Shown here piece by piece: positions 24,092 through 43,229 of a stretch of 58,202 bases of DNA. The stretch is taken from the NCBI GenBank assembly GCA_964106915.2, contig CAXKYZ020000115.1. One strand, given 5' to 3'. Origin of the DNA: Podarcis gaigeae (taxonomy: Eukaryota). A program made the position numbers and the translations under genes. Under the pieces are notes generated by a model. It ran no database searches. It saw only the letters and a program-made list of their open reading frames with translations, and was not told the origin of the DNA. Numbering within the stretch: the stretch's first letter is position 1; each line of letters begins with the position of its first letter.

Positions 24092-24100
24092 GGGAGGCTC

Positions 24101-24691: not shown

Positions 24692-24705
24692 TGTTCTCTC
24701 CTTGT

Positions 24706-24776
24706 GCCATGCGGCATTGGCCCCTGGGTGCCGTGCGGCTGGGGGCTATTGGGTTACTGCGATTCCGCCATGCGGC
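24706..24776 (-). repeat. Three copies of a GCC-GCAY-GGC mini-hairpin in the scaffold gene leader
   Basis: GCCATGCGGC 24706, GCCGTGCGGC 24730, GCCATGCGGC 24767 on +. Confidence 0.7.
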
Positions 24777-24823
24777 GGGAAACTCTGGGGATCTATCAGC
24801 GCGTATTGGGAAAACCCGATATA

Positions 24824-25927
24824 TCAGCGTGCGCCGAGTCGTTCGCGGTTGGGTCGGCGTTTCAGGTCGTGTTGCGCGGTGTGTGCGGCGATTGCGGCTT
24901 GCTGCTGCTTCAGCAGTGCGGCGAGTTCGCGTTTGCGTTGCGGGGTGATGGCGACGGACTGCTGCCGTTTCGTGTCCCGCACAGCGCGTTCCATATCGCG
25001 CTGCTTCTGCGTCGCCGCGTACCCTTCCGGATCCGGCCTGGTCTCGAACGTCCGCGACCCGCCAGGAATGAACGCGCTGACAGCGTGTCCGCAGTTGGGG
25101 TGTTGGAAGCCTTTCGAGCGGGCTTCCCGCAGTGTGGCTTTGATCTTCACCTTCACTGCACGGCCGCCGGTCGCGTTGGGCCGGATCACTGTCCCTGCCT
25201 CGCCATCCAACGAGAGGACTTGCCCTTCGTAGGGTTGGCATTGCGGCGCCGGATTCGAGTGGCTGGATACGACGATCAGGGTTTGACCGCGCTCCAACAT
25301 CCGATCCGTATGCCCATCAATCAACTCTTGGTTGACGATGGTCCGGGACTTCATCTCGATATAGCTGGCGAGGGACCAGTTGCGGCCGGCAGCATCCCGG
25401 AATCCGGTCACGCCACGTTTGGTGAGGATGTCGAGGGCTTGTTGCGCTGCATCCAGGCGTGTACCCGATCGGACACCCGATGACCTCGCGATGATCTGCG
25501 TTGTCACCTGCGAATGCAGCTCCCCCGCGGCACCCGGAATCCGAGCAGTCACAGAGGAAAGCACCTGCTGCCCTGCGTAGATCGCGGCCCGAGTCTTCCG
25601 ATCCCGAGCAGGCGTCACAGGCGGAACCGGAGGCACCTTCGGCAACCCCTTCAAGTCCTCGTCCGCAGCCTCACGGCCACGCTCCGCAGCACCCGCAACC
25701 GCACCCTCAACCAACGCCGGCATCTGGGACTGCAACTGCAACGCCAACAACTGCGCCTGCTGCCGAAACCGCAACATCTCCGCCGGCTGCCGAGCCTCCC
25801 ACTCTGGAGTGTCGATGCCCGCCACAATCGCTTCGGCGAGCATCGACATCAGAGCCAACTCGGCTTCGGTGTAGAGGTTGATCAACTCATCGGGGAGTCC
25901 TGCTGCTTCGGACGGGTCGAGCGCCAT
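24824..25927 (-). CDS. Minor capsid protein (minor capsid 2 / MuF-related)
   Basis: F.DAAGRNW...YIEM..RT, VSSH...C.PYEG, G..HPNCGH, Y...QKQR..ER. Confidence 0.88.
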   Translation of the reverse strand: MALDPSEAAGLPDELINLYTEAELALMSMLAEAIVAGIDTPEWEARQPAEMLRFRQQAQLLALQLQSQMPALVEGAVAGAAERGREAADEDLKGLPKVPPVPPVTPARDRKTRAAIYAGQQVLSSVTARIPGAAGELHSQVTTQIIARSSGVRSGTRLDAAQQALDILTKRGVTGFRDAAGRNWSLASYIEMKSRTIVNQELIDGHTDRMLERGQTLIVVSSHSNPAPQCQPYEGQVLSLDGEAGTVIRPNATGGRAVKVKIKATLREARSKGFQHPNCGHAVSAFIPGGSRTFETRPDPEGYAATQKQRDMERAVRDTKRQQSVAITPQRKRELAALLKQQQAAIAAHTAQHDLKRRPNRERLGAR

Positions 25928-25930
25928 CGC

Positions 25931-27526
25931 CTACTCCTCAGCGGGTTTGACCTCATCGACAGGAGGCACAGGCGGTTCAGGCGGGATGTTCGGGTCAGGA
26001 TTCTGATCCGGAGGAAGCGAACCGAACGGCGAAGGAACCTGGTTCTTTTCGTCGATCTTCTTCACTTCCTCATCGATCCGCTCCTCATCCCAATCCTCAT
26101 GCAGATACGACACTTTCGTGTGAGTCGACGCAGCATCCGCCGTCGCCCAACCCTGAACCGTCCGAGACTTCGCCTCATCCGACTCACGAGCAAACTTCGG
26201 CCAATCCAGCTCCAACTCCTCGACCGGAGCGACACCCTTGCCGGGGAACTTGACTGCATCGATCTGCATGCAAATCGTCGCCAACGGCCCAAGAGCAGCA
26301 CCCCAATAACGGGCCTTACCCTTCGTTGTCTTGACCGTCAACTCTTTCTTGCCCGTCGCCTCTGTCGCGGTCTGAGCGACCTCGTCGGACATGCCGAACG
26401 ACACAGGGCTGTACCCGGTCGTCGACAGGACACGACGCAACAACAACTCCGCGCCCTGATCATGCTCAAGTACCCGCAGCGCCGGCTGATGGAACTGGAA
26501 CATCGAAGTCGCGTCGCCGTCCTTCACGCCCTGATTGACCTGCGTGAAGATCTCCTGATCCTCAGGCAACGATGCACCGCGACCTGCGCCGTGATTGGTG
26601 AGCAACTGCTCTGAGGCGAACATGCGTGCCTGACCGATCCGGAACTCCCGAGGCAGCGACGAATAGATCAGGTCGAGGCCTTGGAAGATTGGGAACAGGT
26701 CCTGTCGGATGTCTGCCAGTCCGAGGTGTCGCAGTGTGGGGTCGTTGCGCCACTCGGGATTCGGGAGCACGTTCGGGACGTATCGGGCAGCGAGCTCGTC
26801 GACGCCGAGGCTGACGTATCCGCCGGCCGTGTCATCGAAGCTGTCGAGCTCGATGCCCTTGGTGTCGGGGTGCGCTTGAAGGTCCATCACGGTACCGAGG
26901 TTCGTCGGTGTCCCCTTGTACAGGGAGTGCAGGATGCGGCCCTTCTCGTACCGTTCCAAATGCCGCCACACGTCCCGCTCATCCGAACCCGCGAGCTCGG
27001 ACCAGAATGTGACAGCTTTCAAACGGCCCCAAGCGAACTCGGGGATCGCCTTGTCCACATCCACAAAGTCGATCCAAGCATTGTCGGCGACCGTGTCATC
27101 CCACACCACGCGCTGATAGCAGCCACCCAACGCGGACGCTGATTCACCAGCGGTGAACAGGTCACCGTGGAAGGTGGGGGTGTTGAAGATCAGGTCCACA
27201 CGGTCTTGCAATGCCTTGTTGTCGGTGGGGTCGATGATCGTCAGCGGTTCGGAGAACAGTTCCGATGCCGAGAGTTTCGCGATGTCCGCGGGGATCGGGA
27301 CGTGCATTTTCCGGGACGGCTTCGATGCCGACTCGGGTTTCCCGTACAGGAAGTCTGAGACCTTGCCGACGACGCCGGCTTGCGCGAATGATCGACGGTT
27401 GGGGTTGGTGCGGTAGAAGTCGTCGAGTTTGAGGACGTCGCCTTCCCACCACACTTGTGATTCGCGGACTCGTGCGGCGACTTTCGCCAGCGCGGTCGGC
27501 GGCCACGCCATGTTCGCTTCGATCAC
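25931..27526 (-). CDS. Portal protein (SPP1/A118-like)
   Basis: Between TerL and minor capsid; HVPIPADIA..SA..LF, TGYSP.SFG..TATE; start placed at GTG 27526. Confidence 0.9.
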   Translation of the reverse strand: MIEANMAWPPTALAKVAARVRESQVWWEGDVLKLDDFYRTNPNRRSFAQAGVVGKVSDFLYGKPESASKPSRKMHVPIPADIAKLSASELFSEPLTIIDPTDNKALQDRVDLIFNTPTFHGDLFTAGESASALGGCYQRVVWDDTVADNAWIDFVDVDKAIPEFAWGRLKAVTFWSELAGSDERDVWRHLERYEKGRILHSLYKGTPTNLGTVMDLQAHPDTKGIELDSFDDTAGGYVSLGVDELAARYVPNVLPNPEWRNDPTLRHLGLADIRQDLFPIFQGLDLIYSSLPREFRIGQARMFASEQLLTNHGAGRGASLPEDQEIFTQVNQGVKDGDATSMFQFHQPALRVLEHDQGAELLLRRVLSTTGYSPVSFGMSDEVAQTATEATGKKELTVKTTKGKARYWGAALGPLATICMQIDAVKFPGKGVAPVEELELDWPKFARESDEAKSRTVQGWATADAASTHTKVSYLHEDWDEERIDEEVKKIDEKNQVPSPFGSLPPDQNPDPNIPPEPPVPPVDEVKPAEE

Positions 27527-27536
27527 GCGGCCACCC

Positions 27537-28802
27537 CTATTCGATTCGTTCATCAGGCAGGCGCGCTGCTGCATCGAGCGTTGGAATATGTGCCTGCCAC
27601 ATCGGGCGGGACGTTGAGACTGCGTAGCGGAGGGCGTCGACAGCATGGTCGTTGAGTTTCACGGGTGAGTCCTCCCCTTTCTCTGCAGCCTTGGCATCCC
27701 ACACGTAGCCGGGTATTTCGCCGAGCAGTTCGGTGCACGATGCGTGGATGAGTAGCTGCTCGGTGGAGAACAAGGATGCGACGAGTCCGATGCCGGCGCC
27801 GACCTTGTTCGATGCGTTGAAGTAGTTGTCGAATCCGTCGCGCTGCAACTGCACTTTGAAGACAGCGGCAGCGGGGTCGATGTACAAGTATTCGGGTGTA
27901 TCGGTGCTGATGAACTGACGGAGGCTGCGTGAGTGATCGGTGGTGGTGCCTGAGCCTGGCGCCCATTCGGCCATTGCGTACAGCTTGTTGTCGACACCCA
28001 GGCCGAGTTTGATTCCTCGGGTTGGGTTGGTGGTGCCGTAGTCGATACCGACACCGAGGATGCGTTGCATCTCGGGGAGCGTGTCGACGACATGACGTGC
28101 GGGATCGAAAGATTCGTAGATGACACCATCCGCCATCGTCCACAAACCTTTAATGAATCGGTCGTACCAGAGTCCTGTGTACTGCGCCTGCAAACCTTCG
28201 ATGTATCCGTCTGGAAGGTATGCCCGGTTGTCGTCGAGTTCGAAGTGGAACACCTTGTGCCCGCGTTCGTCTGCGCGGTCGATGTATCCGGTCTTGAGCC
28301 AGTTCCTTGGCCCATCAGGGTTGGTGGTTGTGAAGATCCGTGCGCCTGGCACTGACATGCGGGCGACGAGCTGGTTGAAGAACTCTTCGGCCACCAGCGT
28401 TGTTTCGTCGACGTATGCGAGGCATACGGTCATACCGCGGATCGCTGCTTCAGCTCGAACATCGGATGCGCCGATGACGTGCACTGTGCGCCCGAAGATG
28501 TCCGCTGTCGGTGCGCCACGGTTGTAACGCACATGCTGCGCCATCACGCCGTACATGTTGTTGTCCTGCAACGGTCCGATTAGGTTCCGGAAGATGGTGT
28601 CGCGTGTCCGGCCGATGACCACGATCTCGCCCTGTTCTGGGGCGTTCGCGACTCCGACAAGGAACGCCAACAGGGATCCGACTGTTTTCCCGGATCGGAC
28701 AGCGCCGTGCCAGATGTTGACTCGGCCTTTCGAGGCATCAGCATCAGCGTGAGCGAAAGACTCCAGTTGCTTCTGAGACATCCGCAGACCGTTGAGCGCC
28801 AT
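27537..28802 (-). CDS. terL: Terminase large subunit (PBSX-type)
   Basis: Walker A GAVRSGKT, Walker B AYVDE, TTNP, GIDYG, DHAVDALRY. Confidence 0.96.
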   Translation of the reverse strand: MALNGLRMSQKQLESFAHADADASKGRVNIWHGAVRSGKTVGSLLAFLVGVANAPEQGEIVVIGRTRDTIFRNLIGPLQDNNMYGVMAQHVRYNRGAPTADIFGRTVHVIGASDVRAEAAIRGMTVCLAYVDETTLVAEEFFNQLVARMSVPGARIFTTTNPDGPRNWLKTGYIDRADERGHKVFHFELDDNRAYLPDGYIEGLQAQYTGLWYDRFIKGLWTMADGVIYESFDPARHVVDTLPEMQRILGVGIDYGTTNPTRGIKLGLGVDNKLYAMAEWAPGSGTTTDHSRSLRQFISTDTPEYLYIDPAAAVFKVQLQRDGFDNYFNASNKVGAGIGLVASLFSTEQLLIHASCTELLGEIPGYVWDAKAAEKGEDSPVKLNDHAVDALRYAVSTSRPMWQAHIPTLDAAARLPDERIE

Positions 28803-28805
28803 CAG

Positions 28806-29300
28806 TTATTCCTTTTCGTCGGCTAGTTTCTTCACCTGCTCGAACAGTTCGTTGAGCATCGACTTCGCGACGTCAGCGTCTTGGCCGGCACCCATGCGGG
28901 TCAGGTTTTCGTGGGACTTGATGAGGCGTTCGACTGCGGCGGTGAATTCAGCGACGGCTTTCGCGTCTGGCAGGTCGAGGATCTCGGTCACTGGCCCGTG
29001 TGGTGTGGAGACGATGACGGTGTACTGGTCCCAGATGCGTTCGCGGATGTTTATGGCGTCGGCTAGGACTGCGGCTGCGAGTTGCGCACGCGCCTGCGCG
29101 GACCTGTCAGCATTTTTCTGGCGCATTGCTTCGATGGCGGGGCTTGGTTCTTGCCAGAGTATTCCGAGTCGTTTTGCTCTTCGGCTGATGTCTGGTCTGG
29201 TGCATCCGATTTGGTCGGCTGCTTGTTGTTGGGTTTTTCCGAGTGCGTGGTGTTCTCGGAGTGTGGAGTCTTGTTCGGGTGTCCATTCCCATCGGGGCAT
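28806..29300 (-). CDS. terS: Terminase small subunit (HTH)
   Basis: N-terminal HTH; immediately upstream of TerL. Confidence 0.72.
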   Translation of the reverse strand: MPRWEWTPEQDSTLREHHALGKTQQQAADQIGCTRPDISRRAKRLGILWQEPSPAIEAMRQKNADRSAQARAQLAAAVLADAINIRERIWDQYTVIVSTPHGPVTEILDLPDAKAVAEFTAAVERLIKSHENLTRMGAGQDADVAKSMLNELFEQVKKLADEKE

Positions 29301-29321
29301 TGTTCACCTCGTTTGGGGTGG

Positions 29322-29462
29322 TTATGTGCGTGTGTTGTGGATGTCTGTCAGGATTCGGTTGCGTTGGTCGAGGAGGGTGTCGATGGCGTTTGGGTTGCCT
29401 GCGCGTCGTGCTTGTTCGAGGTCCCATTCGTTTTTGTCGAGTTGGTCTTGGAGTGATTGCAT
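29322..29462 (-). CDS. Small protein, 46 aa (MQSLQDQLDKNEWDLEQARRAG...)
   Basis: Hand-translated; GGAGGT RBS; TAATG overlap with upstream micro-ORF. Confidence 0.65.
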   Translation of the reverse strand: MQSLQDQLDKNEWDLEQARRAGNPNAIDTLLDQRNRILTDIHNTRT

Positions 29463-29527
29463 TACTGCCACCTCCACATGCGCCAGATTCCGGTGATTGC
29501 CCAGATGAGTAGTTCGCGGGTTGGCAT
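29462..29527 (-). CDS. Micro-ORF, 21 aa (MPTRELLIWAITGIWRMWRWQ)
   Basis: TAATG overlaps at both ends. Confidence 0.5.
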   Translation of the reverse strand: MPTRELLIWAITGIWRMWRWQ

Positions 29528-29580
29528 TAGATGATCCAGTATTGGATGAGTGCCCAGATGATGCGGAGTGTTTCGATCAT
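29527..29580 (-). CDS. Micro-ORF, 17 aa (MIETLRIIWALIQYWII)
   Basis: AGGAGG RBS 4 nt before ATG; TAATG overlap downstream. Confidence 0.5.
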   Translation of the reverse strand: MIETLRIIWALIQYWII

Positions 29581-29690
29581 TGGGCCTCCTGAAGTTGAAC
29601 CCCGGGCGCGCTGGCTAGCGACTGCTCCGGGGGTTGCTGCACCATCCTCAAAAGGTGCGCCCTGGGGGGAAGTGGGCGCGGTGTGCAGCA

Positions 29691-29730
29691 AGACGAAACG
29701 CGACACCCGAGTGATTGTCAGGTGTCGCGT
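29691..29730 (-). terminator. Intrinsic terminator between early/middle and late regions
   Basis: Minus strand ACGCGACACCTGA-caatcac-TCGGGTGTCGCGT-TTCGTCTT. Confidence 0.7.
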
Positions 29731-29772
29731 ACGCGCATAGCGTATCAGATGATCATCCGCATGCGTGCATAA

Positions 29773-29997
29773 CTATGCATCAGCTCCGAATATTGCCAGG
29801 AACGGCAGTCGAGGAATGAGGATTCGTCTACCGATCCGAACAGACGGGATAGTGCCGTCCTCGATGCCAATTCGGACTGTGCGGGGGTCTATTCCGAGCG
29901 CTTGCGAAACCTGTGTTCGTGTGATCGCCATGCTCGACATGTTCTTGATGTCTTCGATGGACAGTGTGGGTGTCGGACTTGGTGCTCCCATTTTCAT
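29773..29997 (-). CDS. Excisionase-like HTH (HTH_17/MerR-like) protein
   Basis: ITRTQVSQALGID..TV...I..G.IPSVRIGRRILIP. Confidence 0.82.
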   Translation of the reverse strand: MKMGAPSPTPTLSIEDIKNMSSMAITRTQVSQALGIDPRTVRIGIEDGTIPSVRIGRRILIPRLPFLAIFGADA

Positions 29998-30644
29998 GAT
30001 GCCTTTCGTTGGGGTGTGGCGTAGTGGGCGTCGAGTATGTCACCGAGTGTGTAGATGGGGGTTTTCTTGTCCGCGTAGCGGATCGGCGTAATTTTGTGTT
30101 TTTCGACGAGGTGGTTGATGCGGCGGATGGTGAGGCCTTGGGCGCCGATGTGTTTGGCGAGGGTGGCGATGCCTCGGGCGTTGAGTTGTTCGGCGTGTGC
30201 TTGGGCGAGGCGGGTGGGGTTGGGTTTGGGGATGGGTTGGAGGTGGCTGCGTCCGGATGCGTTGCGTGCGTGCCTGATTTCCGAAGTGATGTCGTGGTGT
30301 GCGGCTTCGCTGCCTGGGGTTGCGGCGAGGAGCAGGATGTTGCGTGTGAGCCAGTCTGCGTAGCCTGCGCAGTGGGTGTTGGGTGCTGCGATCTGTCGTG
30401 CGTCAGCGAGCCAGTACACCCATCGTTCGAGTTCGATGAGGAGTCTGTCGGCGGCGTCGACGGCTGCGACGTTGAACGGCAAGGGTTGGGGGCGGTCTCC
30501 TGTGGTGACTTTGGGGTTCCAGTTGGCGGTGGCGATGCGGGGTTTCTGGGCTTCTTGGAGGTCGTCGAGGATGTCTCGGACTTCCCCCAGAGCGTCGGTG
30601 AGCTCCTGTTGTTCGTGGCGTGGGATGAACCAGTGTTCAGTCAC
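29994..30644 (-). CDS. Conserved phage protein with C-terminal HTH-like segment (possible late regulator)
   Basis: PLPFN..A..A...L..WV; IYTLGDIL C-terminus; end of early/middle region. Confidence 0.65.
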   Translation of the reverse strand: MTEHWFIPRHEQQELTDALGEVRDILDDLQEAQKPRIATANWNPKVTTGDRPQPLPFNVAAVDAADRLLIELERWVYWLADARQIAAPNTHCAGYADWLTRNILLLAATPGSEAAHHDITSEIRHARNASGRSHLQPIPKPNPTRLAQAHAEQLNARGIATLAKHIGAQGLTIRRINHLVEKHKITPIRYADKKTPIYTLGDILDAHYATPQRKAS

Positions 30645-30936
30645 GGTGTCCTCCGATGCGGTGGCGTGCGCGGTCGTGGCAGGGTCGGCAGCGTCCTCGT
30701 GCGCCGTGTGGGGTGTGGCCTTCGATGCGTCGGGTTCGGGGTGCCATGGGGGTTCCGCATTCTCGGCAGGGTTGTCCGATGTCGATTCCGATGCGTCCGC
30801 CTGGGCCTGGGAGTGTTGCGAGGAGTTCGGCTAGGTGTGGGTCGCGTTTGAGTGGTGGCCGGCCGGGGATGGATCGGGCGTAGGCGTCGAGGGCTTTGGA
30901 GTCTGCGGGAGTCCATTCGAGGAGGTCAGTTGTCAC
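30637..30936 (-). CDS. Zn-finger protein (CRECG...HGARGRCRPC)
   Basis: CxxC..H..CxxC pattern. Confidence 0.65.
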   Translation of the reverse strand: MTTDLLEWTPADSKALDAYARSIPGRPPLKRDPHLAELLATLPGPGGRIGIDIGQPCRECGTPMAPRTRRIEGHTPHGARGRCRPCHDRARHRIGGHRD

Positions 30937-31147
30937 CGGCGTATTCCTTGATGATGGGGAGGATGACGGGGAGGATCGCTTTGGCGTAGGCGTTGCCGTA
31001 GTTGTCCAGCCATTGCTCGCACTTTTCGGGGCCGAGCGATCGGAGGTAGGTCAGCATCTTCTGCTGGTCTGGGTCGGTTGCTTTCTCTACGATGTCTCGG
31101 CCTGATCTGTAGAGCGCGTCCCGGAGTTGGCTTTCGATTCTGCTCAC
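30926..31147 (-). CDS. Hypothetical protein, 73 aa
   Basis: GTGA overlap with upstream gene. Confidence 0.65.
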   Translation of the reverse strand: MSRIESQLRDALYRSGRDIVEKATDPDQQKMLTYLRSLGPEKCEQWLDNYGNAYAKAILPVILPIIKEYAGDN

Positions 31148-31464
31148 CCTTCACCGCCCGGAGTGAACAGAACAGTCATCGGGAGCGGCAGGTATCGCCA
31201 TCCGGCCGTGTCACTGCGCTTGACGTACACGTCCATCTCGTCTGGATGGTCGAGGTTTCGTGCGAGAACCGACCCAATCGGCAGCGCCTCTAAGTCTTCG
31301 ATGCTGTTCACCGTGTGAGGCTTCGACCAACCAGCGGCGAGGAGTCGGTCGGCCGCGTGCTGTGGCAGCGTCCCAACGCCACCGGGGTTGTCGAGAACTG
31401 CGCCGGCCAATATGTGCACCAGTTCGTCTCTCGCGGGTGTGGCCTGTGATCGGATCTCACTCAC
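31144..31464 (-). CDS. Hypothetical protein (paralog of 35138-35512)
   Basis: KPHTVNSIEDLEALPIGSV...LPMTVLFTP; GAGGAG RBS. Confidence 0.75.
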   Translation of the reverse strand: MSEIRSQATPARDELVHILAGAVLDNPGGVGTLPQHAADRLLAAGWSKPHTVNSIEDLEALPIGSVLARNLDHPDEMDVYVKRSDTAGWRYLPLPMTVLFTPGGEG

Positions 31465-31859
31465 AACGACTCCTCAGAAGGCAGTTCGATTCGGGCGGTG
31501 ACGATCAGCTTTGTGCCAGGCGGAAAGTCGGATGCGTAGGCCTTGAAGCCGGGGCCGTACGTGAATCCCTGCCGCTTATCCCAGAAGAGGCCGTCGAGGT
31601 GCCGAACTTCACCAGGAAGGTCAATGCCACGTAGGTGTGGCGCAACAACCTTCTCTGCGGTGAGTGTGATCGTCTGCTCGGGATTGTCAGCAGATAGCAC
31701 TTCGTCGGGGTTGGTGTGTCGTACGCAGCGATATGGGAACTTTCGGTATCTGGCGCGAATTTCATCCTCTTCGCGTCGGCTGGTTGCAGTCGTGAACGAG
31801 TTATCCTTGCATCCTTCATGTGCGCAGATAAGTCGGATTGTGTACTCGCGTCTGCTCAT
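31461..31859 (-). CDS. Hypothetical protein, 132 aa
   Basis: Overlap-coupled; CxxxxC..CxxH. Confidence 0.72.
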   Translation of the reverse strand: MSRREYTIRLICAHEGCKDNSFTTATSRREEDEIRARYRKFPYRCVRHTNPDEVLSADNPEQTITLTAEKVVAPHLRGIDLPGEVRHLDGLFWDKRQGFTYGPGFKAYASDFPPGTKLIVTARIELPSEESL

Positions 31860-32206
31860 TGCTGTTCCCCTTCCAAAGCTGCGCGGAGGAGTTGAGCCGC
31901 CCGTTTGTATATGCCCATCTCCAATTGGTAAGACATGAGCGCTTGCCCGTCGTCGGCCTCGGCTGCGCAGACTGCACCGTTCGACGCGTTCTGGATGTGC
32001 CAGTCGAAATCTTCAAGCACTGGCGCTGTCCGCCCGTTGATGTACTGCTTCACCACCAACGCCACATGCGCAGGGAAAGCGTCGGCTCCCATCCATATGC
32101 CGCACTTGCAGACGAGCCGGTACTCAGCACCGGCCGGAACCCACTGCTGGCTCATCACCTGGTGCGCTGCGATGAGGTCGGTCAACCCCGGATCAGGCGC
32201 GGTCAT
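31856..32206 (-). CDS. Hypothetical protein (MTAPDPGL..; CKCG..H)
   Basis: ATGA overlap with upstream stop. Confidence 0.68.
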   Translation of the reverse strand: MTAPDPGLTDLIAAHQVMSQQWVPAGAEYRLVCKCGIWMGADAFPAHVALVVKQYINGRTAPVLEDFDWHIQNASNGAVCAAEADDGQALMSYQLEMGIYKRAAQLLRAALEGEQQ

Positions 32207-32835
32207 GCAATACCCCTTACGTCGATAGCGGTTTGGTTCTGAATGCTGTCCACCCACGAAAGAAGTTTCGGCAGGTTCTCGTCCGGTCCGAACGCGAGAT
32301 ACGTTCCGTCCACCGAGTCGCACCCGATGGCTTCCGCGTACCTGTAGCGGGTTTTGGAATTCACGCGTCCCATATGGACGTGTTTGCCGCGACGTTTCGC
32401 TTCCGTCACCAAGTTCCGGGCGTGTTTGCCGAGTTTCCATTCGGTGGATCCGCCGATGAACAGGGCGTCGAACGAGTCCCACGGCACTGTCAGGTTTTCG
32501 AGGCCGTCCTGAGCGACGAGGGCGACCGGGTATCCGAGCGCTCTGATCACGGGCAGGAACGGCTTCGACCGCTTCAATGTTTCTTTCGCGTCCCCCACCA
32601 CGTCGGGCGCGGTGGCGAACAGGCATGTGCCGGCGTCGTCACGGTTGGCGAGCAGCCACGCGATGTACTGGATGTCCCCTGGGTACCCTTTGCCGAAGCA
32701 TCCGTTGTCCGCCACCCATGCCACGCCCGGTTCACGTTTGTTGCCTTGCGCTGGGGTGTCGATGTAGCCGAGCAGTTCTTTGCGCATGGCGTCACGCACC
32801 TTCTGGCTGGAGGGGTTGGCGAAGTACAGCACCAC
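32203..32835 (-). CDS. TGT-fold / DpdA-like guanine transglycosylase (putative 7-deazaguanine DNA modification)
   Basis: ADNGCF, APDVVGD, VAQDG, FIGGS, VHMGRVN, DSVDGT in TGT-barrel order; directly downstream of the VUT domain. Confidence 0.75.
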   Translation of the reverse strand: MVLYFANPSSQKVRDAMRKELLGYIDTPAQGNKREPGVAWVADNGCFGKGYPGDIQYIAWLLANRDDAGTCLFATAPDVVGDAKETLKRSKPFLPVIRALGYPVALVAQDGLENLTVPWDSFDALFIGGSTEWKLGKHARNLVTEAKRRGKHVHMGRVNSKTRYRYAEAIGCDSVDGTYLAFGPDENLPKLLSWVDSIQNQTAIDVRGIA

Positions 32836-33727
32836 GTGACACCGCCTTGCCGAGAATGAGGTATGCGAGGGTGGCCCACGCTTTGCCGACGAGCTGTCCT
32901 GCGAGCGCTGGCAGTACAGCAGCCCAACCGAATGCGATCGCGAGGAATATGACGGTGTCGGCCAGGGCTCCGGTGAGGCTGGATGCGGTGACAGCTGCAG
33001 CCCACCTGCGATCACCGAGTTTCGATCGGTTCCGCAAGGGCGTGTAGACCGCAAAGTTGAGCAACTCCGCGACGGCAAATGCGACTGCCGATGCGGTGGC
33101 GATGAACGGATCCGCGATCAGATACGACAGGACTGCGCCGACAGCGAGTACTGCGAGCATCTTCGGTTTGCCGAGGAGGTCTTGCGTCGCGTCTCGGGCG
33201 GCGAGTGCGAAGCCGGCGGCGAATGTGCCAGCTGTCGCAGCGAATCCGAATCCGACTGGGACGAATCCGAATCGGGTGGTTGCCCAGTTCGCGACAATAA
33301 TGGAGGCGAGGAGTGTTGCTGCGGATAGGTATCCGAGGGAGTTTCGTGTGCTCAATGGTGTGGGCTCGATTCGAATCTCGATGCGAGGGTTTTCGCGGTC
33401 CAGGAGGATGGTGTTGCCGCCGTCAATCACATGCTTTTGGGCGTCGTCGGGGATGACGTGTTGGCGGAGTGCGTCGATGGCGTCTTTGCGGAATGCGCTG
33501 AGGCCGTCTGCGTCTCGGATGCGGGCGTCGGGTGCGTATTGGGTGATGCTGATGGTTACTTGTTCGCACATGGGGATCGGGTTGGTTTGTAGTGCTTGTC
33601 GGATCTGCCAGTGGATGCGGGTGCGGGCCTTGGACTTTTTTGTCCAGTGGGCGTTGCGCCATTCGTTCATGGTGAGGGGCGGCCGGCCGGGATGCGCTGT
33701 GTCGATGATGGTGAGGGTGTGGGTCAT
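32792..33727 (-). CDS. In-frame fusion: RusA-like Holliday junction resolvase (N, about 124 aa) + VUT/YhhQ queuosine-precursor transporter (C)
   Basis: RDADG...KDAIDAL...IPDD...PRIEIRI (RusA) then IVANW..FG.VPVG.G..ATAGTF.AG.AL.ARD.TQ, AS.VAF.VAEL..FAVYTPLR, GALADTVIFL.IAF (VUT); no stop between. Confidence 0.8.
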   Translation of the reverse strand: MTHTLTIIDTAHPGRPPLTMNEWRNAHWTKKSKARTRIHWQIRQALQTNPIPMCEQVTISITQYAPDARIRDADGLSAFRKDAIDALRQHVIPDDAQKHVIDGGNTILLDRENPRIEIRIEPTPLSTRNSLGYLSAATLLASIIVANWATTRFGFVPVGFGFAATAGTFAAGFALAARDATQDLLGKPKMLAVLAVGAVLSYLIADPFIATASAVAFAVAELLNFAVYTPLRNRSKLGDRRWAAAVTASSLTGALADTVIFLAIAFGWAAVLPALAGQLVGKAWATLAYLILGKAVSRGAVLRQPLQPEGA

Positions 33728-34326
33728 CGTTTTTTGGCTCTCGCTGCGCGGTCTTGTTCGGCGCGCCAGTCGCGGCATTCGGCGCATCGGCAGAGGTAGG
33801 AGACGTATCCGTTGCCTGAGCCGTGGTTGGCGTTGGGGTGGAATGGTCTGCCGTTTTTGGTGATTCGTTGGATGCGGAATCGTGATTTGGAGAGGAGTGT
33901 TGTTTCGGATTTGGTGCGTGGGCCTGGTTTGTTTTCGAGGCGGGTGATGGTGGCTTGGATGCGGGGGTGGTCTGCGCAGACTTGGCAGAGGGTGCCTTCG
34001 CCGTCGAGGATGTGGGTGGTGGCTTTGGAGCCGATGGTTCGGTATCCGCGGAGTTCGCCGCATTGGGTGCAGGCTTGGTTGGATGTGGGGATCGCGGTGG
34101 GGGTTGCTGCTCGGCGGTTGGCGACTTTGGGGATGGGTCTGCGTGTGGGTCGGGTGCGTTTGCGGTCTTCGGCTAGGAGTTGTTGGACGGTGGGTGAAAG
34201 CTCGATGGGCGGTAGCGTTTTGGGCCGCATCAATCGGTCGGCTTCGCGCATTTCGCGTCGGCAGGGCCCGCATTGCCCGCAGAGTCCGGTGGGGCAGGAT
34301 TGGGTGGAGAGGCTGGTAGCGATCAT
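33724..34326 (-). CDS. Cys-rich (multi Zn-finger) hypothetical protein
   Basis: C..CG.C..C, CTQCG..CQVC, HG...Y....CRC.EC. Confidence 0.7.
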   Translation of the reverse strand: MIATSLSTQSCPTGLCGQCGPCRREMREADRLMRPKTLPPIELSPTVQQLLAEDRKRTRPTRRPIPKVANRRAATPTAIPTSNQACTQCGELRGYRTIGSKATTHILDGEGTLCQVCADHPRIQATITRLENKPGPRTKSETTLLSKSRFRIQRITKNGRPFHPNANHGSGNGYVSYLCRCAECRDWRAEQDRAARAKKR

Positions 34327-34430
34327 TTCCCTGCCGCCTGTTCGTGGGCTCGGTCCCATGCGTCGTTGTCTTCCCAGCGGTCGAGGGTGACGGGGTCTTC
34401 TAGTCCGTCGTCGTGATCGAAGTGGCTCAT
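34323..34430 (-). CDS. Small acidic protein, 35 aa
   Basis: ATGA overlaps at both ends. Confidence 0.5.
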   Translation of the reverse strand: MSHFDHDDGLEDPVTLDRWEDNDAWDRAHEQAAGK

Positions 34431-34597
34431 TCGATCACCCGGAGGGCCAACATGTTTGAGCCTTCGGGCTCGATCGAGAGCTTTCCAATACGTGCCCCGG
34501 AGGCATGGATCTTGAGGCAGTCTTCTTCGGGCCGGATGGTGATTTTGTCGCCGTTGTCGAAGACGAATACGACAGGCGCGTTGATGTGATTCGCCAT
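34427..34597 (-). CDS. Hypothetical protein
   Basis: GGAGGGGG RBS; coupled to neighbours. Confidence 0.6.
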   Translation of the reverse strand: MANHINAPVVFVFDNGDKITIRPEEDCLKIHASGARIGKLSIEPEGSNMLALRVIE

Positions 34598-34929
34598 CAC
34601 TCCCCCTCCAGTTCGAGCGTGCGCTGCCAAATGGCACATGCATGCGCCCGTCGCACGTCACCAATTTCGAGGGCATCGAGCCCTTTCTGAGCGAAATAAG
34701 CTCTCGCGGCAGTACCTTCGAGCGCTGGCACAATGTGCATGTTCTCGCGGATAGTCGCGAGTTCCTCGGTCGGATAGAGCGGGTTGACGGCCAGCTTTCG
34801 GCGCATCCCTTCAACGAGGATGTCGAGCATGGTGTCGATGCCTGCGCGTGGCAGGAACAGTAGGTCGTCGGGCCAGCATTCCGACTGGTCGTCGAAAAGG
34901 TCGCATTCGATCTTGTAGAGAGTGCTCAC
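34597..34929 (-). CDS. Hypothetical protein, 110 aa
   Basis: Overlap-coupled ORF. Confidence 0.65.
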   Translation of the reverse strand: MSTLYKIECDLFDDQSECWPDDLLFLPRAGIDTMLDILVEGMRRKLAVNPLYPTEELATIRENMHIVPALEGTAARAYFAQKGLDALEIGDVRRAHACAIWQRTLELEGE

Positions 34930-35141
34930 ATTGCACCGCCGACGTTGGGCATGTTCGCGGTCATCTGCGCCTGTTGCAGGTCGGTGCGGGCCTTATCCAG
35001 CTGCTTCCGGGCCTGCTGTGCGGCGTCGACGAGGGCGTCCCGTTCCTGCGGCCCAATCCAACCCAAATCGAGGGTGGCTTTCGCGTTGTCGTCGCCGATC
35101 TTCGCGGCGAGCGTGGCGAGTTCTTCGAGGTAAGTGCTCAT
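34926..35141 (-). CDS. Hypothetical coiled-coil protein, 71 aa
   Basis: GGAGG RBS; ATGA overlap. Confidence 0.68.
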   Translation of the reverse strand: MSTYLEELATLAAKIGDDNAKATLDLGWIGPQERDALVDAAQQARKQLDKARTDLQQAQMTANMPNVGGAM

Positions 35142-35512
35142 GCTGTTGCCTCCGGGGTGAACAAGACCGTCGCGGGAAGCAGCGGCTTATAGGCGTAGTC
35201 ATCTTCGGGGTCCATTGCGCTTAGCCATGTGCCGTCGAGTCCCTTTTCCATGACTGAGTACATGGCTTGTCCGTCGTAGCGCAGTGAATACCAGATGACT
35301 GTTCCGACTGGTAGTTCACGCAACTCTTCGATGTTGTCCACTGTGCGAGGCTTGGGCTGGTAGTCGGCGAGGACCGCGTCGGCGACTGCGAGTAGGTCGT
35401 AACGGCTGTCGAGGACGGCGTCGCTCAAGTCGCTGATGTCGGTGTAGCCGAACTGGTCTTCGCCACGCAGCGTGACGGCGATGGTCTCGGCCAACTCTTC
35501 TCGTGTCCTCAT
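35138..35512 (-). CDS. Hypothetical protein (paralog of 31144-31464)
   Basis: KPRTVDNIEELRELPVGTV...LPATVLFTP. Confidence 0.72.
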   Translation of the reverse strand: MRTREELAETIAVTLRGEDQFGYTDISDLSDAVLDSRYDLLAVADAVLADYQPKPRTVDNIEELRELPVGTVIWYSLRYDGQAMYSVMEKGLDGTWLSAMDPEDDYAYKPLLPATVLFTPEATA

Positions 35513-35700
35513 GCTGCGTATCCGTTCAGGTATCCGGTGAGGGTGTAGGCGAAGGTGGCGCAGAGTCCGGTGAGGGTGACGGCGACGTAGGTTCGTCCGC
35601 GCCACAACTTGCGGCGCTCCAACCGTTCGTGCCGGTCTGTCAGGTCGTCCATGAGTGCGAGGGATTCGAGCATGTCGCAATGCTGCGCAAGGGATCTCAC
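35509..35700 (-). CDS. Small membrane protein
   Basis: C-terminal hydrophobic segment; GTGA/ATGA overlaps. Confidence 0.6.
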   Translation of the reverse strand: MRSLAQHCDMLESLALMDDLTDRHERLERRKLWRGRTYVAVTLTGLCATFAYTLTGYLNGYAA

Positions 35701-35912
35701 AGTCGGCTCCCGTCTGTGTCGAGTTGCGTCATGCAGTCCTCGCACACGAAGTAGTCACCGAACCCGGGATCCTCGTGTGCGCTGAGGTTGATGGAAGTGC
35801 AGCTGCCGCACACCGGAGCATTCACAGCGGCGGGCTTACGTGAAGCGATGAGTTCAAGCGCAGGAACACCTGTGCGGTGCCGGCCACGCGAACGAAAAGC
35901 GAGAACAGTCAT
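35697..35912 (-). CDS. Small Zn-ribbon protein (CGSC...CEDC)
   Basis: GGAAGG RBS before MTVLAF; the longer 36152 start is also open. Confidence 0.55.
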   Translation of the reverse strand: MTVLAFRSRGRHRTGVPALELIASRKPAAVNAPVCGSCTSINLSAHEDPGFGDYFVCEDCMTQLDTDGSRL

Positions 35913-36148
35913 GACATTCCTTCCGATTTCTGGTCCCGCTGCAACGGGATTCTTCAACTGTAGACAATCATCATGCGTCACGCAAGACGCGAGACTCGTA
36001 AGGCAAAAGGATTTACCGCCTGACGTCTTGCGTCCTACGTGACAGTTGCCAGCCCCCAGTTTCACGCTGGCCGACAAACGGGCCACATCCGGCACATGCA
36101 TCCCAAACCACACACTATGAACCACAGAAACGTTCTCAGCCGCGATTC

Positions 36149-36694
36149 TCATTTTGCGTACTTCGGATTCGGTTCAGCTTCGATCATCAATCTCGGCAGG
36201 CAGGGCATTTTCCGCTCCACCCCGGAAACCTTGTTCGTGCAGGCCTGGTACTCGTCAGCCCCACACAACGGGCACACATGCTCGATCGCATTGTTCACCG
36301 CATAGGCGCCTGGAACAGGTTTCCCGTCTGCACCGCCGATCGGTAAGCCTCCCAGCTGCGCATCACCCTGAACCAAACCGTGCTTCACGTCGTGCTGCAA
36401 TTGCCGCAGCTCCCGATCCACGGCAGGTTCGCGCTGCGCCCGGTCGATCCGAATCTCACGTGCAATCCGGATAACGTCCGCCGGCATGATCATCCGCAAT
36501 GGTTCGTTGCGGTAGTGCACAGTCACGGCATTGAGAGCATCCGGGAGTTCGAGGTTGTACGGGGCGAGAGCCTCCGCCCACGCACCTCCACGCCCGATAT
36601 CGGCTTCGCTGAATCGGTTGTCGAACAATGCCGCTCGGCCGATGATCAAGCCAGTGTCCGAAAGTTGTTGAGGTGTCGCTTCGATCAGATTCAT
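36149..36694 (-). CDS. Replication accessory protein (helicase loader/inhibitor-like) with Zn finger
   Basis: AW...L......DALNAV..HY...IMPADV motif; CPLCGA...C; follows the initiator. Confidence 0.6.
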   Translation of the reverse strand: MNLIEATPQQLSDTGLIIGRAALFDNRFSEADIGRGGAWAEALAPYNLELPDALNAVTVHYRNEPLRMIMPADVIRIAREIRIDRAQREPAVDRELRQLQHDVKHGLVQGDAQLGGLPIGGADGKPVPGAYAVNNAIEHVCPLCGADEYQACTNKVSGVERKMPCLPRLMIEAEPNPKYAK

Positions 36695-37587
36695 GCGGTG
36701 ATGCCTTTCGGTGTTGACGAGTTGAGTCCTTCGGCTTGCCGTTGGGCGAGCTGGTTGCCCATGTCGGCCCATCCCATCGCTTTCTTGGTCGCCTTCCCGA
36801 TTCCGCTGTCAGATGGTGCAGCAGGTCGGTTAGCAGCTTTGTGAACGAATCCGGGAATCATCGACGCCGCTGTCATCGGTGACGCGGCCCAGTCCTGGAT
36901 CCCTGCTTCGATCTGCTCACGACTCACCCCCGACTTGAGACATCCGTCGACAGCTTGCGCGATCTTCGAAATCAAATCGCCTGGGACTGGCGACGGGCAG
37001 GAATCCGAGTAGGCCCTTGCGATGATGTGCGCCTCAGCGGAGTGCGCTGTCCCGTTGAGATGCTCAGCGATGTCTCGCACTCCCCGCGGTCTCGCCGGCG
37101 CGTCTCTTAGGTGAGGTGAACTACTTACGTAAGTAAGTAGTTCTTTCTCTTTCTCTATCTCTATCTCTGCTTGATTCTGCTTGAGGTCCTGCTTAGCAGC
37201 TGCTAGCCCGTCTGCTTGCGTTTCGTTGGCATGCGCCCGGTTCGCTGCCCTGGCCTTGCCCCCCTTCTGACCTGCGGCGATCTTCTCATTTCGAGACTTT
37301 TCGATCTCCGCGATGGTCTGATTATGTTCGGCATAGTCGTGAACAATCGCGACATTTTTTGATTCAAAAATTGTGATCGCTCCGCAAGATTCCACCGAAA
37401 TTCTGTTGCGCTTTGTTCCCATCTTCACCCACACAGGCAGCGGCAGATTGCCGTCGTTGGGGTACTCACGGCAGTGCATGATGGCTTTCACGATCAACCA
37501 CTTCTGCCCGTCTGTGAGGTTGATGTACTTCGGATTGCGGTCCATATCCACCGCCAGATTGATATAGATCCGCTTGTCTTTGGGCAC
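36691..37587 (-). CDS. Replication initiation protein (RepA/lambda-O-like)
   Basis: YINL..DM..NPK, HDY.EHN, AGQKGGKA motifs; internal iterons. Confidence 0.75.
   Translation of the reverse strand: MPKDKRIYINLAVDMDRNPKYINLTDGQKWLIVKAIMHCREYPNDGNLPLPVWVKMGTKRNRISVESCGAITIFESKNVAIVHDYAEHNQTIAEIEKSRNEKIAAGQKGGKARAANRAHANETQADGLAAAKQDLKQNQAEIEIEKEKELLTYVSSSPHLRDAPARPRGVRDIAEHLNGTAHSAEAHIIARAYSDSCPSPVPGDLISKIAQAVDGCLKSGVSREQIEAGIQDWAASPMTAASMIPGFVHKAANRPAAPSDSGIGKATKKAMGWADMGNQLAQRQAEGLNSSTPKGITA
37118..37218. promoter_or_regulatory. Putative replication origin: AT-rich palindrome, pyrimidine tract and five CTGCT(T) iterons
   Basis: GAACTACTTAC-gtaa-GTAAGTAGTTC 37118-37143; iterons at 37167, 37177, 37189, 37200, 37212. 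Confidence 0.65.
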
Positions 37588-37600
37588 GGTAGGGCTGTCC

Positions 37601-37885
37601 TTACTTGCGGCGGTTGTGTCGTTCGTAGCGTCGGCGAGTGCCAGGGCGGGCTGACACCGGATCCGGTCGCGGGCGGAAGATCGGATTCGAGTACACGATC
37701 TCCAAGGTTTCTTTGATGTCCGCTTCAGTGACGCGCCACTTGTTGGCGATCTTCCTGCCGGGCCACTTCTGCGATCGCAGTTGCTCGCGGTAGTAGGTGG
37801 GGCTGCACCTGAGCCGTAGCGCGGCCTCGTCGATGGTGAACACTTCGTCGGGTGGTATGTGCCGGCGTTGTTCGGTGGTCGTCAT
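37601..37885 (-). CDS. Excisionase-like HTH DNA-binding protein
   Basis: FTIDEAALRLRCS......LRS..WPGRKIANKWRVTEADI. Confidence 0.8.
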   Translation of the reverse strand: MTTTEQRRHIPPDEVFTIDEAALRLRCSPTYYREQLRSQKWPGRKIANKWRVTEADIKETLEIVYSNPIFRPRPDPVSARPGTRRRYERHNRRK

Positions 37886-38091
37886 GCTGCTTCTCGTTTC
37901 TCGTGTGGGATGTACAGCTGGTTGCGTTGGACGACGGCGAGGTGGCAGAGGCCGCCGCGGGGGTGTCCGTTGTCGAGGCAGATGGTGTAGCCGTGTTCGT
38001 CTTTGTGGACGATGGTGACTTCGCTGAGGGCGCTGTAGGTGCCGATGTTGGGGTGGGTGATGGGCACTCGGAGTGAGGCTTCGCGGATCAT
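37882..38091 (-). CDS. Hypothetical protein
   Basis: ATGA overlaps at both ends. Confidence 0.62.
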   Translation of the reverse strand: MIREASLRVPITHPNIGTYSALSEVTIVHKDEHGYTICLDNGHPRGGLCHLAVVQRNQLYIPHEKREAA

Positions 38092-38414
38092 GCGGCGCCT
38101 TTCCATACTCGGTTCGGGTTGGAGTGGCGTTCTTTTCGTGCGGGTTGGCACCATCCGGTTTGGGCGATGTGGCCGCGGCGTGACGCATTGCCGATGATGG
38201 ATGAGAGGACGTTTCCATTGCCTGCGCGGAGCCAGTCGCGGGTTTCGGGTGGGACTGCGTCGCGGACGTGGTCGGCGGAGAATTCGCGGCCGGATCGGAT
38301 GAGTTCGGTGAGGGCGGTTTCGATGTGGTTGGGGTGGTCGTGGTGTCCGACTGTTGCGGCTGCGAGGGCTGCGTCTTGCCCGTCCAACCTGAGCTGCTCA
38401 CCAGCAGTGGTCAT
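38088..38414 (-). CDS. Hypothetical protein (GEQLR..G..FSADHVR..RH....RVW)
   Basis: Overlap-coupled ORF. Confidence 0.7.
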   Translation of the reverse strand: MTTAGEQLRLDGQDAALAAATVGHHDHPNHIETALTELIRSGREFSADHVRDAVPPETRDWLRAGNGNVLSSIIGNASRRGHIAQTGWCQPARKERHSNPNRVWKGAA

Positions 38415-38656
38415 CAGTTTGTCCATTCGTAGTGTTCGCAGGGTTCGCGGTCTCCGGCTTGGGAGTCCCATTCGTAGCGCGGGTGGCGCACGTTCTTGAG
38501 GACTTCAACTTCGGTTTCCCTGTTGCCCCAGATGGTTTCGATGCGAGGTTCGCCGAACTCACCGCCCATGTCGGAGCGTCCCGCGAGCGGAGCACGGTTC
38601 TCGATCGCCTCATACACTTCGTCGCTTCGAGCGCAGTCGATTCGCGTCCAGGTCAT
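38414..38656 (-). CDS. Hypothetical protein, 80 aa
   Basis: Overlap-coupled ORF. Confidence 0.65.
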   Translation of the reverse strand: MTWTRIDCARSDEVYEAIENRAPLAGRSDMGGEFGEPRIETIWGNRETEVEVLKNVRHPRYEWDSQAGDREPCEHYEWTN

Positions 38657-38817
38657 GCTGCGTCCTTGGGGGTTTCGGTGGGGAGGTTCGCGTCCGGATG
38701 TGTCCAGCGGTTGTACGGGCCACCACGGTCCTCACGAGTGCCGCACCAGGCTTCGTGCTGGTTCCATCCCGGCACCGGACCACTGCACGTGCACGTATCG
38801 CGGAAGTAGAGGCTCAT
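38653..38817 (-). CDS. Small protein, 54 aa (MSLYFRDTCTC..HEAWCG..)
   Basis: Hand-translated; ATGA overlaps at both ends. Confidence 0.55.
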   Translation of the reverse strand: MSLYFRDTCTCSGPVPGWNQHEAWCGTREDRGGPYNRWTHPDANLPTETPKDAA

Positions 38818-39734
38818 GACGCCACCTGCTCTTCCACCGTCTCCGCGTCAACAGGCTCAGCGTCCAACGGCAACTGCTCAGGCTCAGGCAGCGAGGCGCC
38901 ATCCGACTCAGGCTCCGACATCCCCTGAATGCGCCCCATGATCAACGCCTGAATGTCGTCCTTCTCCTGCGCCGGCAACGTCGCAGTCTGCTTCCACAGC
39001 TCCCGCAACACATCCTTCGACTCAGCAGCCTCAATCGCAGCAAGCAAAGAATCCACGTCCACAGACGGTTCACCCAACGCTTCAGTGATCGACCGCGGGC
39101 GTGCTTGCGTCGACTGCTGAGGGCGCTGACGAGTCGAGCCTTGCTGCCCGTTGTCCGCCTGCTGCATCTCATCCGAGGTGTACAGACCGGACAAGTCCTG
39201 CGGGAATGCCTTACGCAATGCCAACGCCTCAGCGCATTTCGCCAACATCAGTGCGCCCTTCGTGGCCCACATCTGCGTCACATCGCCGTTGAACTTGGTT
39301 CCCACGTACTCGTTCCAGAGCGCGATTGCGGGATAGCGTGCACCGTCACGAATCACGGTGACCTTCGCGGCGCGGGGCTGCTCACGCTGCAACCAGACGT
39401 CGGTCCACTTGCCGTCTTCTCCGCACCACAGGGTGTCCTCGTAGCCGAACGTGCCACGAGCGGCGTCGGTAGCGCGTCGAGCGATCAGACGAAACCCGTC
39501 GATCCCGGTCTGGATGGTCTGCTTCCCCTTGCGTTCGATCATGTAGATCTGGCGCGCAAACGGATCCAAGCCGGTGCGCTGGCACTGGTGAAAGAACACG
39601 GCCAAGTCAGCTTTCGATGCTTTCTCGACGCCGATCTGAGCGAGCGCCGATTCCTGCTTCGGGGTCCAGAAGTCCTGTTCGGGCGAAACCGCTAGTGCGG
39701 ATCCTGTGTGTACTGCGATCTCGGTCATCGTCAT
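38814..39734 (-). CDS. RecT/Bet-like ssDNA annealing protein
   Basis: CQRTGLDPFARQIY, QTGIDGFRLIA, MLAKCAEALALRKAFPQDLSGLYTSDEM. Confidence 0.93.
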   Translation of the reverse strand: MTMTEIAVHTGSALAVSPEQDFWTPKQESALAQIGVEKASKADLAVFFHQCQRTGLDPFARQIYMIERKGKQTIQTGIDGFRLIARRATDAARGTFGYEDTLWCGEDGKWTDVWLQREQPRAAKVTVIRDGARYPAIALWNEYVGTKFNGDVTQMWATKGALMLAKCAEALALRKAFPQDLSGLYTSDEMQQADNGQQGSTRQRPQQSTQARPRSITEALGEPSVDVDSLLAAIEAAESKDVLRELWKQTATLPAQEKDDIQALIMGRIQGMSEPESDGASLPEPEQLPLDAEPVDAETVEEQVAS

Positions 39735-39946
39735 CAGTCCTCGTCGATCGGTTCGGTGGCTTCTTCACGTTCATAGGCGCTGGCATCAGCCCACAGGCTG
39801 ATGGATAGGGAGGGCTTGCAGCCTCCGGCGCGAACGTTGATCGCCGAAGCGATCGTCTTCACGGTTTCCGCTTCGGCGTCGGTCAGGATGACGAAGGCGC
39901 GTGTTGTGTCATCACACCCGGACGTTGCGATCAGGTACTCAGTCAT
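39734..39946 (-). CDS. Hypothetical protein (copy 2)
   Basis: Same as 659-871. Confidence 0.72.
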   Translation of the reverse strand: MTEYLIATSGCDDTTRAFVILTDAEAETVKTIASAINVRAGGCKPSLSISLWADASAYEREEATEPIDED

Positions 39947-40863
39947 GCTGCTTCTGCCTTTCGTGGCTTCAAGATTTCGGGAGCCTTCTCCGCGAGGCCA
40001 GACGTGGCGCGGATAGACGGCGCACCCTTGCTATTGACACGCGACGCGATCGTGTGACCGTTGAACGTCGCCTTCTTCGACGAACCCAAGTATTCGAGGA
40101 GCACCGACCCGGTCCGCTTCTTCTCCAGCGCCACAGCAGCTTCCGCCGCAAACGCCTCCAAATACGGAACCGCGATCTCCGCCGGAACATCCACACCCGG
40201 ATCATCAGCAATCGATGTATTCGCATACCGAACCGACAACCGATCACAATCACGCGAATGATCCGCCGCCGGCTGATCGCCAGCCTCAACACGCGCCTGG
40301 AACTTCAACACCCGCTCCCGCAGCACCGCCGCATCCCGAGCGTCGTAGTCGATGACAAACACCTTCGGGCGACGATGGAACAGTTCGAACGGACCGCACG
40401 CCGCGAGATGCGTACGGCGAGCACCGATCACATCCATCTGCCACATCACCTGCACCAGATAACCGATCGGAACCTCATCACCCCACGAGTGAATGTCGTC
40501 GGCTGTCTTGATCTCCAACAGTTCGACCGTGCCGTCAGGCAACGTGACAATCCCGTCCGGATCCGCTGTCTGCCAATCACGAAGACTGTGCTGCCATGTC
40601 GACGTTTCCTCGATCGTCCAATCGAGATGCATGTTCGAGAACCAACCACGAATCAGCGGCTCGAACTCATGCCCGCGGCCCTGCACATCGGTCTGCGGCT
40701 GCGGCGGCACTACGCCTGTGATGCCGTCGTAGATCGATCGTTCGGTGTCCCACTTCGACAAACCACAGATCGCTGCGACCTTCGACGCCGAGTACTTCGT
40801 CCACCACTCCGCGGTGCCAGGAGCGAGAGGTTCGGGAAGCTGGAATCCAGTCAGAGTGGTCAT
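39943..40863 (-). CDS. YqaJ-like exonuclease (copy 2)
   Basis: Same as 868-1788. Confidence 0.92.
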   Translation of the reverse strand: MTTLTGFQLPEPLAPGTAEWWTKYSASKVAAICGLSKWDTERSIYDGITGVVPPQPQTDVQGRGHEFEPLIRGWFSNMHLDWTIEETSTWQHSLRDWQTADPDGIVTLPDGTVELLEIKTADDIHSWGDEVPIGYLVQVMWQMDVIGARRTHLAACGPFELFHRRPKVFVIDYDARDAAVLRERVLKFQARVEAGDQPAADHSRDCDRLSVRYANTSIADDPGVDVPAEIAVPYLEAFAAEAAVALEKKRTGSVLLEYLGSSKKATFNGHTIASRVNSKGAPSIRATSGLAEKAPEILKPRKAEAA

Positions 40864-41051
40864 AGGATCACCGACACAGGCAGTGAGTCGATGAACAAGT
40901 CAGTCGCAGCGTCGAGGGCCTCAACCGTGCAGCCTTCGTGCGTTACGCCGACGGTCCCCGGAACCCGCAGATGCGGGTAGTGAAAGTCGAACACGTCATC
41001 AAATCTGTCCACTGCTTCCTGCAACTCAGGAGTGATATCCTTTACGTGCAT
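40860..41051 (-). CDS. Hypothetical protein (copy 2)
   Basis: Same as 1785-1976. Confidence 0.68.
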   Translation of the reverse strand: MHVKDITPELQEAVDRFDDVFDFHYPHLRVPGTVGVTHEGCTVEALDAATDLFIDSLPVSVIL

Positions 41052-41119
41052 TCGCTTTTCCTTCCGATTGGTGATTGCCTCGCCCGTCCTCCTGCAAGAG
41101 GGCGGGCTTTTTCGTGCCT

Positions 41120-41398
41120 TCATGCCGAAACCAATTGTCGTTTGTCACGCGTGACACGCAACGGTTCAGGCATAAAAAGGGCCTTCCTGGGGGCTCGAAG
41201 CTCCTTGGCGATCAGCTTCGCCCGGTTCTGCGGGCAGTGCTTTCGCTTGCCAGTTCGGTAGTGGCCGATGGTGGAGTGGGAGCACTTCACCCTCGATGCC
41301 AGTTCTCGGACGGACATGTCGTTGTACTCCATGTATTCGACCAACAGGTCGGCGTTCACGATCACGTCGAGCCTCCATTCAGATTGCTTGTTTTTCAT
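41120..41398 (-). CDS. Cro-like HTH regulator (copy 2)
   Basis: Same as 2045-2323. Confidence 0.85.
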   Translation of the reverse strand: MKNKQSEWRLDVIVNADLLVEYMEYNDMSVRELASRVKCSHSTIGHYRTGKRKHCPQNRAKLIAKELRAPRKALFMPEPLRVTRDKRQLVSA

Positions 41399-41420
41399 GG
41401 CTTTGCCTTTCCGTTTCACT

Positions 41421-43226: not shown

Positions 43227-43229
43227 AGG

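Follow-up and report, generated by a model that had tools for sequence, protein, structure and literature searches.

In a single phage clone, one extra base unites the reading frames of a RusA-like resolvase and a VUT/YhhQ-like membrane protein into a single predicted membrane-anchored protein, likely an accident that the phage tolerates. The locus lies in the window, the whole stretch of 58,202 nucleotides analysed here (contig CAXKYZ020000115.1 of the Podarcis gaigeae assembly GCA_964106915.2), where the following features are relevant:

11927..51001, no strand: one full phage period of 39,075 bp, a circular temperate phage genome
33724..34326, minus strand: Cys-rich gene of 200 aa upstream of RusA, its stop overlapping the RusA start as ATGA
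33356..33727, minus strand: RusA-like Holliday junction resolvase domain, codons 1-124, identical to the stand-alone protein P0125
33353..33358, minus strand: the junction CCA TTG, one T above the CCATGA stop/start overlap of relatives
32792..33355, minus strand: VUT/YhhQ-like (Vut_1) membrane domain of 187 codons with six predicted long helices
32203..32835, minus strand: DpdA-like tRNA-guanine-transglycosylase-type gene of 210 aa, overlapping the VUT tail, the second gene of the cassette

Two domains in one reading frame

Positions 33727 to 32792 of the minus strand form a single open frame of 311 codons, bearing out the original prediction that a RusA-like domain, here matching phrog_34, runs without a stop into a VUT domain, here matching Vut_1. 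Residues 16-123 match the RusA-like phrog_34 with an E value of 1e-12, and the RusA half matches a RusA profile at 8e-8; the Pfam RusA model, run on the whole fusion, gives E 8e-4 and 20.5 bits, below its cut-off of 22.8. The catalytic residues of Escherichia coli RusA are D70, D72, K76 and D90 (PMC1636454), and their equivalents D72, D74, K81 and D95 are all kept; in an alignment of 27 rows, D72, K81, D85 and D95 are invariant. The seven best structure matches of the AF2 model of this half are to 2h8c/1q8r (Foldseek E 3e-6 to 8e-5). E. coli RusA (PDB 1q8r/2h8c) shares with it both the fold and the four catalytic-residue equivalents. RusA-like resolvases of Gordonia phages are about 40% identical to it. 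Known RusA proteins are small soluble dimers, whereas this one lacks a stop and continues into a membrane domain.

The second half matches Vut_1 (PF02592) over residues 207-288 (E 2e-11, 45 bits, passing the cut-off of 27.2) and phrog_4899 over residues 130-292 of the fusion. Modelled with a VUT-rich alignment it forms six long helices, with pLDDT of about 76-93 across residues 131-300. It resembles the preQ0/preQ1 transporter VUT/YhhQ (COG1738, PF02592) in its Vut_1 match, in its six predicted long helices and in adjoining a transglycosylase-type gene. Unlike YhhQ, this putative transporter belongs to a short actinophage subfamily and falls under both equivalog cut-offs (46.6 against 50.95 for TIGR00697 and 35.6 against 252 for PRK11212); the window protein also adds a 124-residue N-terminal nuclease. 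The predicted linker from the final strand of RusA to the opening helix of VUT is 4-5 residues long. Overall pTM of the fusion models is only 0.41-0.59, so they do not predict how the two halves are placed relative to each other. In E. coli YhhQ, which has six helices, the C-terminus lies in the cytoplasm (PMC5372724); by analogy, the RusA domain would face the cytoplasm. Both halves are intact in sequence, and both are predicted to fold.

The VUT half heads an ordinary VUT + DpdA-like cassette. The same order and overlap are found in cluster P mycobacteriophages (Bunnies gp54-55, StevieRay, Ksquared) and in Rhodococcus phage ReqiPine5, with identities to the window of 56-62% for VUT and 58% for the DpdA-like protein. 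In Bunnies the RusA-like gene is separate and lies three genes upstream, unlike the fusion in the window. The 210-aa protein is 58% identical to Bunnies gp55, for which DpdA-like is an annotation label, and has no sequence match in Pfam, NCBIfam or PDB, its Atlas clusters being unnamed. Two other arrangements were seen among VUT relatives. In one locus (L005:718-3068) a close VUT relative follows genes that by eye look like queC, queE and queD, which would make up a preQ0 pathway cluster. In a single record, P0274 (279 aa), a soluble N-terminal part that by eye resembles a TGT/DpdA-type enzyme appears joined to the C-terminal half of a VUT.

The extra base is genomic

The fused-frame junction reads GAG CCC ACA CCA TTG AGC ACA CGA on the minus strand. 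The original prediction left open a sequencing indel and held that the region, being single-copy in the window, could not be cross-checked. The fused locus is indeed single-copy there, but public data cover the site and carry the T. All 217 words sampled from 32200-34300 occur in 14 runs. Four of these, from four studies, were compared; each has one contig spanning 32200-34300 with no mismatches and no gaps. The junction CCA TTG AGC is the same in all four and in three of three other assemblies that contain the whole gene, these being 100% identical across 6,636-8,933 bases. The exact 311-aa protein is found on 94 contigs (NCBI, Logan, ENA), the longest of 6,297,370 bp, although this evidence for the T consists of assembled contigs rather than raw reads and may go back to one shared biological source. 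The assemblies are adequate for judging sequencing error, and provide no evidence of conservation.

The fusion is real DNA and not a sequencing artefact. What could make one suspect an error is that removing one base restores a textbook overlap, and that every run was seen as contigs of unrecorded sequencing technology. Identical letters in the four runs, the three further assemblies and the 94 contigs from three sources, at a site that is just TT and no long homopolymer, make a sequencing or assembly error vanishingly improbable, and with it the indel branch of the original prediction falls.

A temperate phage, probably outside its host

Window positions 1-19127 equal 39076-58202 exactly, so the window runs 1.49 times round a circle of 39,075 bp. 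It encodes an integrase, a repressor, a cro-like protein, RecE/RecT, replication proteins, terminase, portal, capsid, tail and lysis genes. Named members of the clusters to which neighbouring genes belong are Rhodococcus qingshengii, R. erythropolis or Rhodococcus sp., and the four close relatives checked are all classed as proviruses. Contigs of 39,064-39,088 bp with the same gene occur in assemblies whose titles name Dehalococcoidia, Gammaproteobacteria and Stappiaceae. The window itself is contig 2 of a 2.75-Mb genome, 100 relatives of which gave only two weak VUT matches. The window is thus a temperate phage, likely of Rhodococcus, that has been binned into unrelated genomes, and the circle is likely a recurrent contaminant: the phage contig appears in 14 runs that carry 13 organism labels between them, and in assemblies of unrelated taxa. 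The wide spread of the clone in sequence data shows no visible cost, and one source probably lies behind it.

In two of the four runs compared, the phage is a single contig of 39,105 bases (39,075 + 30). Such a contig, unbranched to a host chromosome, fits a closed circle and suggests that the phage with the fused allele can still excise and replicate, although amplification bias may contribute to the signal. RuvC is present in three of three genomes tested from the family of the Rhodococcus record, one of them a named Rhodococcus, from which we infer that the true host of the phage also has it.

Some features of the phage stand apart from the fusion. A close relative, in a Microbacterium sp. 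record (L069), is a separate phage-sized contig of 41,464 bp in a Microbacterium assembly. Two tail-assembly-chaperone paralogues (19972-19541 and 18877-18470) are 28% identical, both being DUF7426/phrog_3860, with a reverse-strand HTH gene at 18904-19296 between them. Near 19664-19658 the first contains GGGAAAT, and a frame at 19691-19293 overlaps this gene, an arrangement that resembles a G/T frameshift pair.

The relatives examined keep the genes separate

How far does the fused allele extend? Contigs with exact copies of its neighbours number 90 for the terminase, 93 for the upstream gene, 101 for the DpdA-like gene and 93 for a 132-aa gene, and the longest contig is common to these four proteins and the fusion. 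These near-equal counts and the common longest contig indicate that the fusion belongs to one clone. Outside it, all six close RusA loci (L010-L014 and L069; 70-100% identity) end CCA TGA, with the ATG of the next gene overlapping, and among 102 loci all 51 RusA loci outside the clone stop within 22 codons of the match. In two further runs, contigs depart from the window exactly at 33355 and continue GACCGAC, which is CCATGA again.

Stand-alone forms of both halves exist. The 124-aa P0125 equals fusion residues 1-124 exactly, some 124-aa RusA calls being possibly cut at contig ends, and the stand-alone 187-aa VUT begins MSTR (MSTRN...) exactly at the TTG of the fusion. The VUT half is 97% identical to stand-alone P0002; the start codon aside, 4-6 residues set it apart from stand-alone alleles. 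The 90% cluster of the fusion also contains a stand-alone 124-aa RusA, a 134-aa RusA and a 187-aa VUT (96-100% identity); it has 60 members, of which about 16 underlie these results, and the others could include less common fused variants at 90-99% identity. Together with the CCATGA of the six close loci, these separate genes agree with the original prediction of a recent one-base gain at an ATGA overlap. Among the relatives examined, sequence places the fused allele in one clone.

The search for other RusA-VUT fusions that had been proposed yields none among the best-ranked protein matches or the phage and plasmid records. No second fusion is found in the best 120 of 457 protein matches, among 92 longer candidates, or in the best 150 of 1022 matches among 1.84 billion representatives. 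The sole match among the longer candidates, P0149 (301 aa, with half a RusA), was rejected as a frameshifted call of the window's own region. A profile scan of 389 proteins finds RusA and VUT domains together only in the fusion, P0001, and its alternative-start call P0134. Among 50,697 phage and 72,556 plasmid records, none reaches 80% coverage of the fusion protein. In viral contigs, the junction pattern with or without the T has no matches and the VUT half as query finds no locus; five VUT loci occur in metagenome contigs, and the sequence retrieved around them contains no RusA. The 401 genomes from the family of the Rhodococcus record have no full-length match to the fusion, the ESM Atlas has no usable match for it, and no description of a RusA-VUT fusion was found in the open-access literature.

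These searches bear on the possibility of an adaptive fusion, in which junction resolution would be anchored beside modified-base import and a new architecture would be beginning. In its favour are the intact halves, each with a predicted fold, and the persistence of the clone as prophage and free circle. Against it, one allele is seen in one clone, with no recurrence in divergent lineages or through independent junctions, the searches above return no second fusion, and no phage or plasmid record covers 80% of the protein; an adaptive origin is highly improbable. The activities of RusA and VUT are not known to share a step. The original prediction was to fall if relatives all had separate genes and no fusion protein were detected; the first half of this holds for the relatives examined. 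A functional chimera is therefore not supported by conservation: the fusion is not conserved in the sequences examined.

How the junction arose

The CCA TTG junction is also a mosaic boundary at which relatives diverge from the window, carrying different genes after CCATGA. One route to it is a one-base insertion that duplicated a T in CCATGAGCAC; in L010, CCATGAGCA does occur 3' of this RusA. In the other route the gene usually found downstream was lost with the join one base off, so that CCAT met TGAGC; that gene ends ...GAGGAGGGGTGAGC in five of six relatives. Since insertion and imprecise join leave identical letters, the sequence alone fits either, and insertion is by judgement somewhat the more probable of the two.

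Losses of this kind do seem to occur in the slot, as suggested by 134-aa RusA variants that end in the tail of the downstream gene (APFVAAEEG). RusA variants with a 10-residue C-terminal tail comprise four proteins on 19 contigs; for one of them, P0126, the longest contig has the same length, 29,037, as for a stand-alone VUT and a DpdA-like protein. The 134-aa proteins P0124, P0126, P0128 and P0132 end in APFVAAEEG or in close variants of it, which is the C-terminus encoded by the gene after RusA in other relatives. The 134-aa RusA is likely, from these sequences, a second and commoner read-through at the same slot.

Predicted expression and probable tolerance of the fusion

Among ten listed pairs of operon genes in contact, nine overlap by four bases (six ATGA, three GTGA) and the remaining one by a single base, so the original argument from ATGA-type coupling across the operon holds. 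Overlaps of the ATGA type couple translation (PMC6728339). Ribosomes would initiate at the ATG of RusA, by coupling to the upstream gene, and continue without a break into VUT. Loss of the stop removes the termination-reinitiation route to free VUT, and mostly fusion is expected; little free VUT would be made from the fused allele because the internal TTG has neither a clear SD nor an overlapping stop. The junction of the fused allele is covered by none of four RNA-library runs, whose shares are small. The VUT half would then insert in the membrane, with RusA held on the cytoplasmic side by the short linker.

Could the TTG instead serve as an internal start, giving ordinary VUT beside the fusion and costing the phage free RusA alone? 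It is a valid start codon, lies exactly where stand-alone VUT begins and was picked once by a gene caller (P0122). Its anti-SD pairing is very weak, however (-2.2 kcal/mol, second-weakest among 21 starts, in a crude test), consistent with the original observation that no SD precedes it. With the overlapping stop gone, nothing is left by which termination-reinitiation (PMC6728339) could work, and internal initiation is very unlikely.

Phages with DpdA alone may depend on imported precursor (PMC6884629); the same paper reports no detectable modification in Orion, a DpdA-only mycobacteriophage, and says that R. erythropolis encodes TGT only. The imported-precursor reliance and the unmodified Orion suggest that the cassette is accessory. 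The transporter would serve merely this accessory VUT + DpdA-like deazaguanine cassette, and junctions might be resolved by the tethered RusA or by host RuvC, which is how the phage would cope.

The fusion might alternatively be real and damaging, with tethering inactivating RusA or blocking VUT insertion, the product degraded and both functions dispensable. In favour of this, the linker between a RusA strand and the first helix has just 4-5 residues, RusA acts as a dimer on four-way DNA (PMC1636454), and the cassette may often idle, given the unmodified Orion and an R. erythropolis said to have only TGT (PMC6884629). Neither half shows decay, however, the RusA half being identical to P0125 and the VUT half only 4-6 residues off besides its start codon, and 10-residue C-terminal RusA tails are common in the family (four proteins, 19 contigs). 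Damage is unlikely. With the catalytic residues of RusA kept and folds predicted for both halves, the phage likely makes a membrane-tethered chimera and tolerates it.

Implications

The locus joins two known genes in a chimera that is real DNA and, among the relatives examined, specific to one clone; most likely it is a tolerated accident. The 94 contigs must not be counted as conservation, and phage genes including the fusion will be mis-assigned to Dehalococcoidia, Gammaproteobacteria, Stappiaceae and the window's own genome. That the clone makes a working protein in which a deazaguanine-base importer anchors a Holliday junction resolvase in the membrane, while still excising and replicating, is unlikely. 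If it did, a new domain architecture would have been caught at birth, with split alleles of near-100% identity as natural controls. It would offer a clear example from nature of a new multi-domain protein created when an ATGA overlap slips by one base, and would mean that a phage resolvase can act while bound to the membrane.
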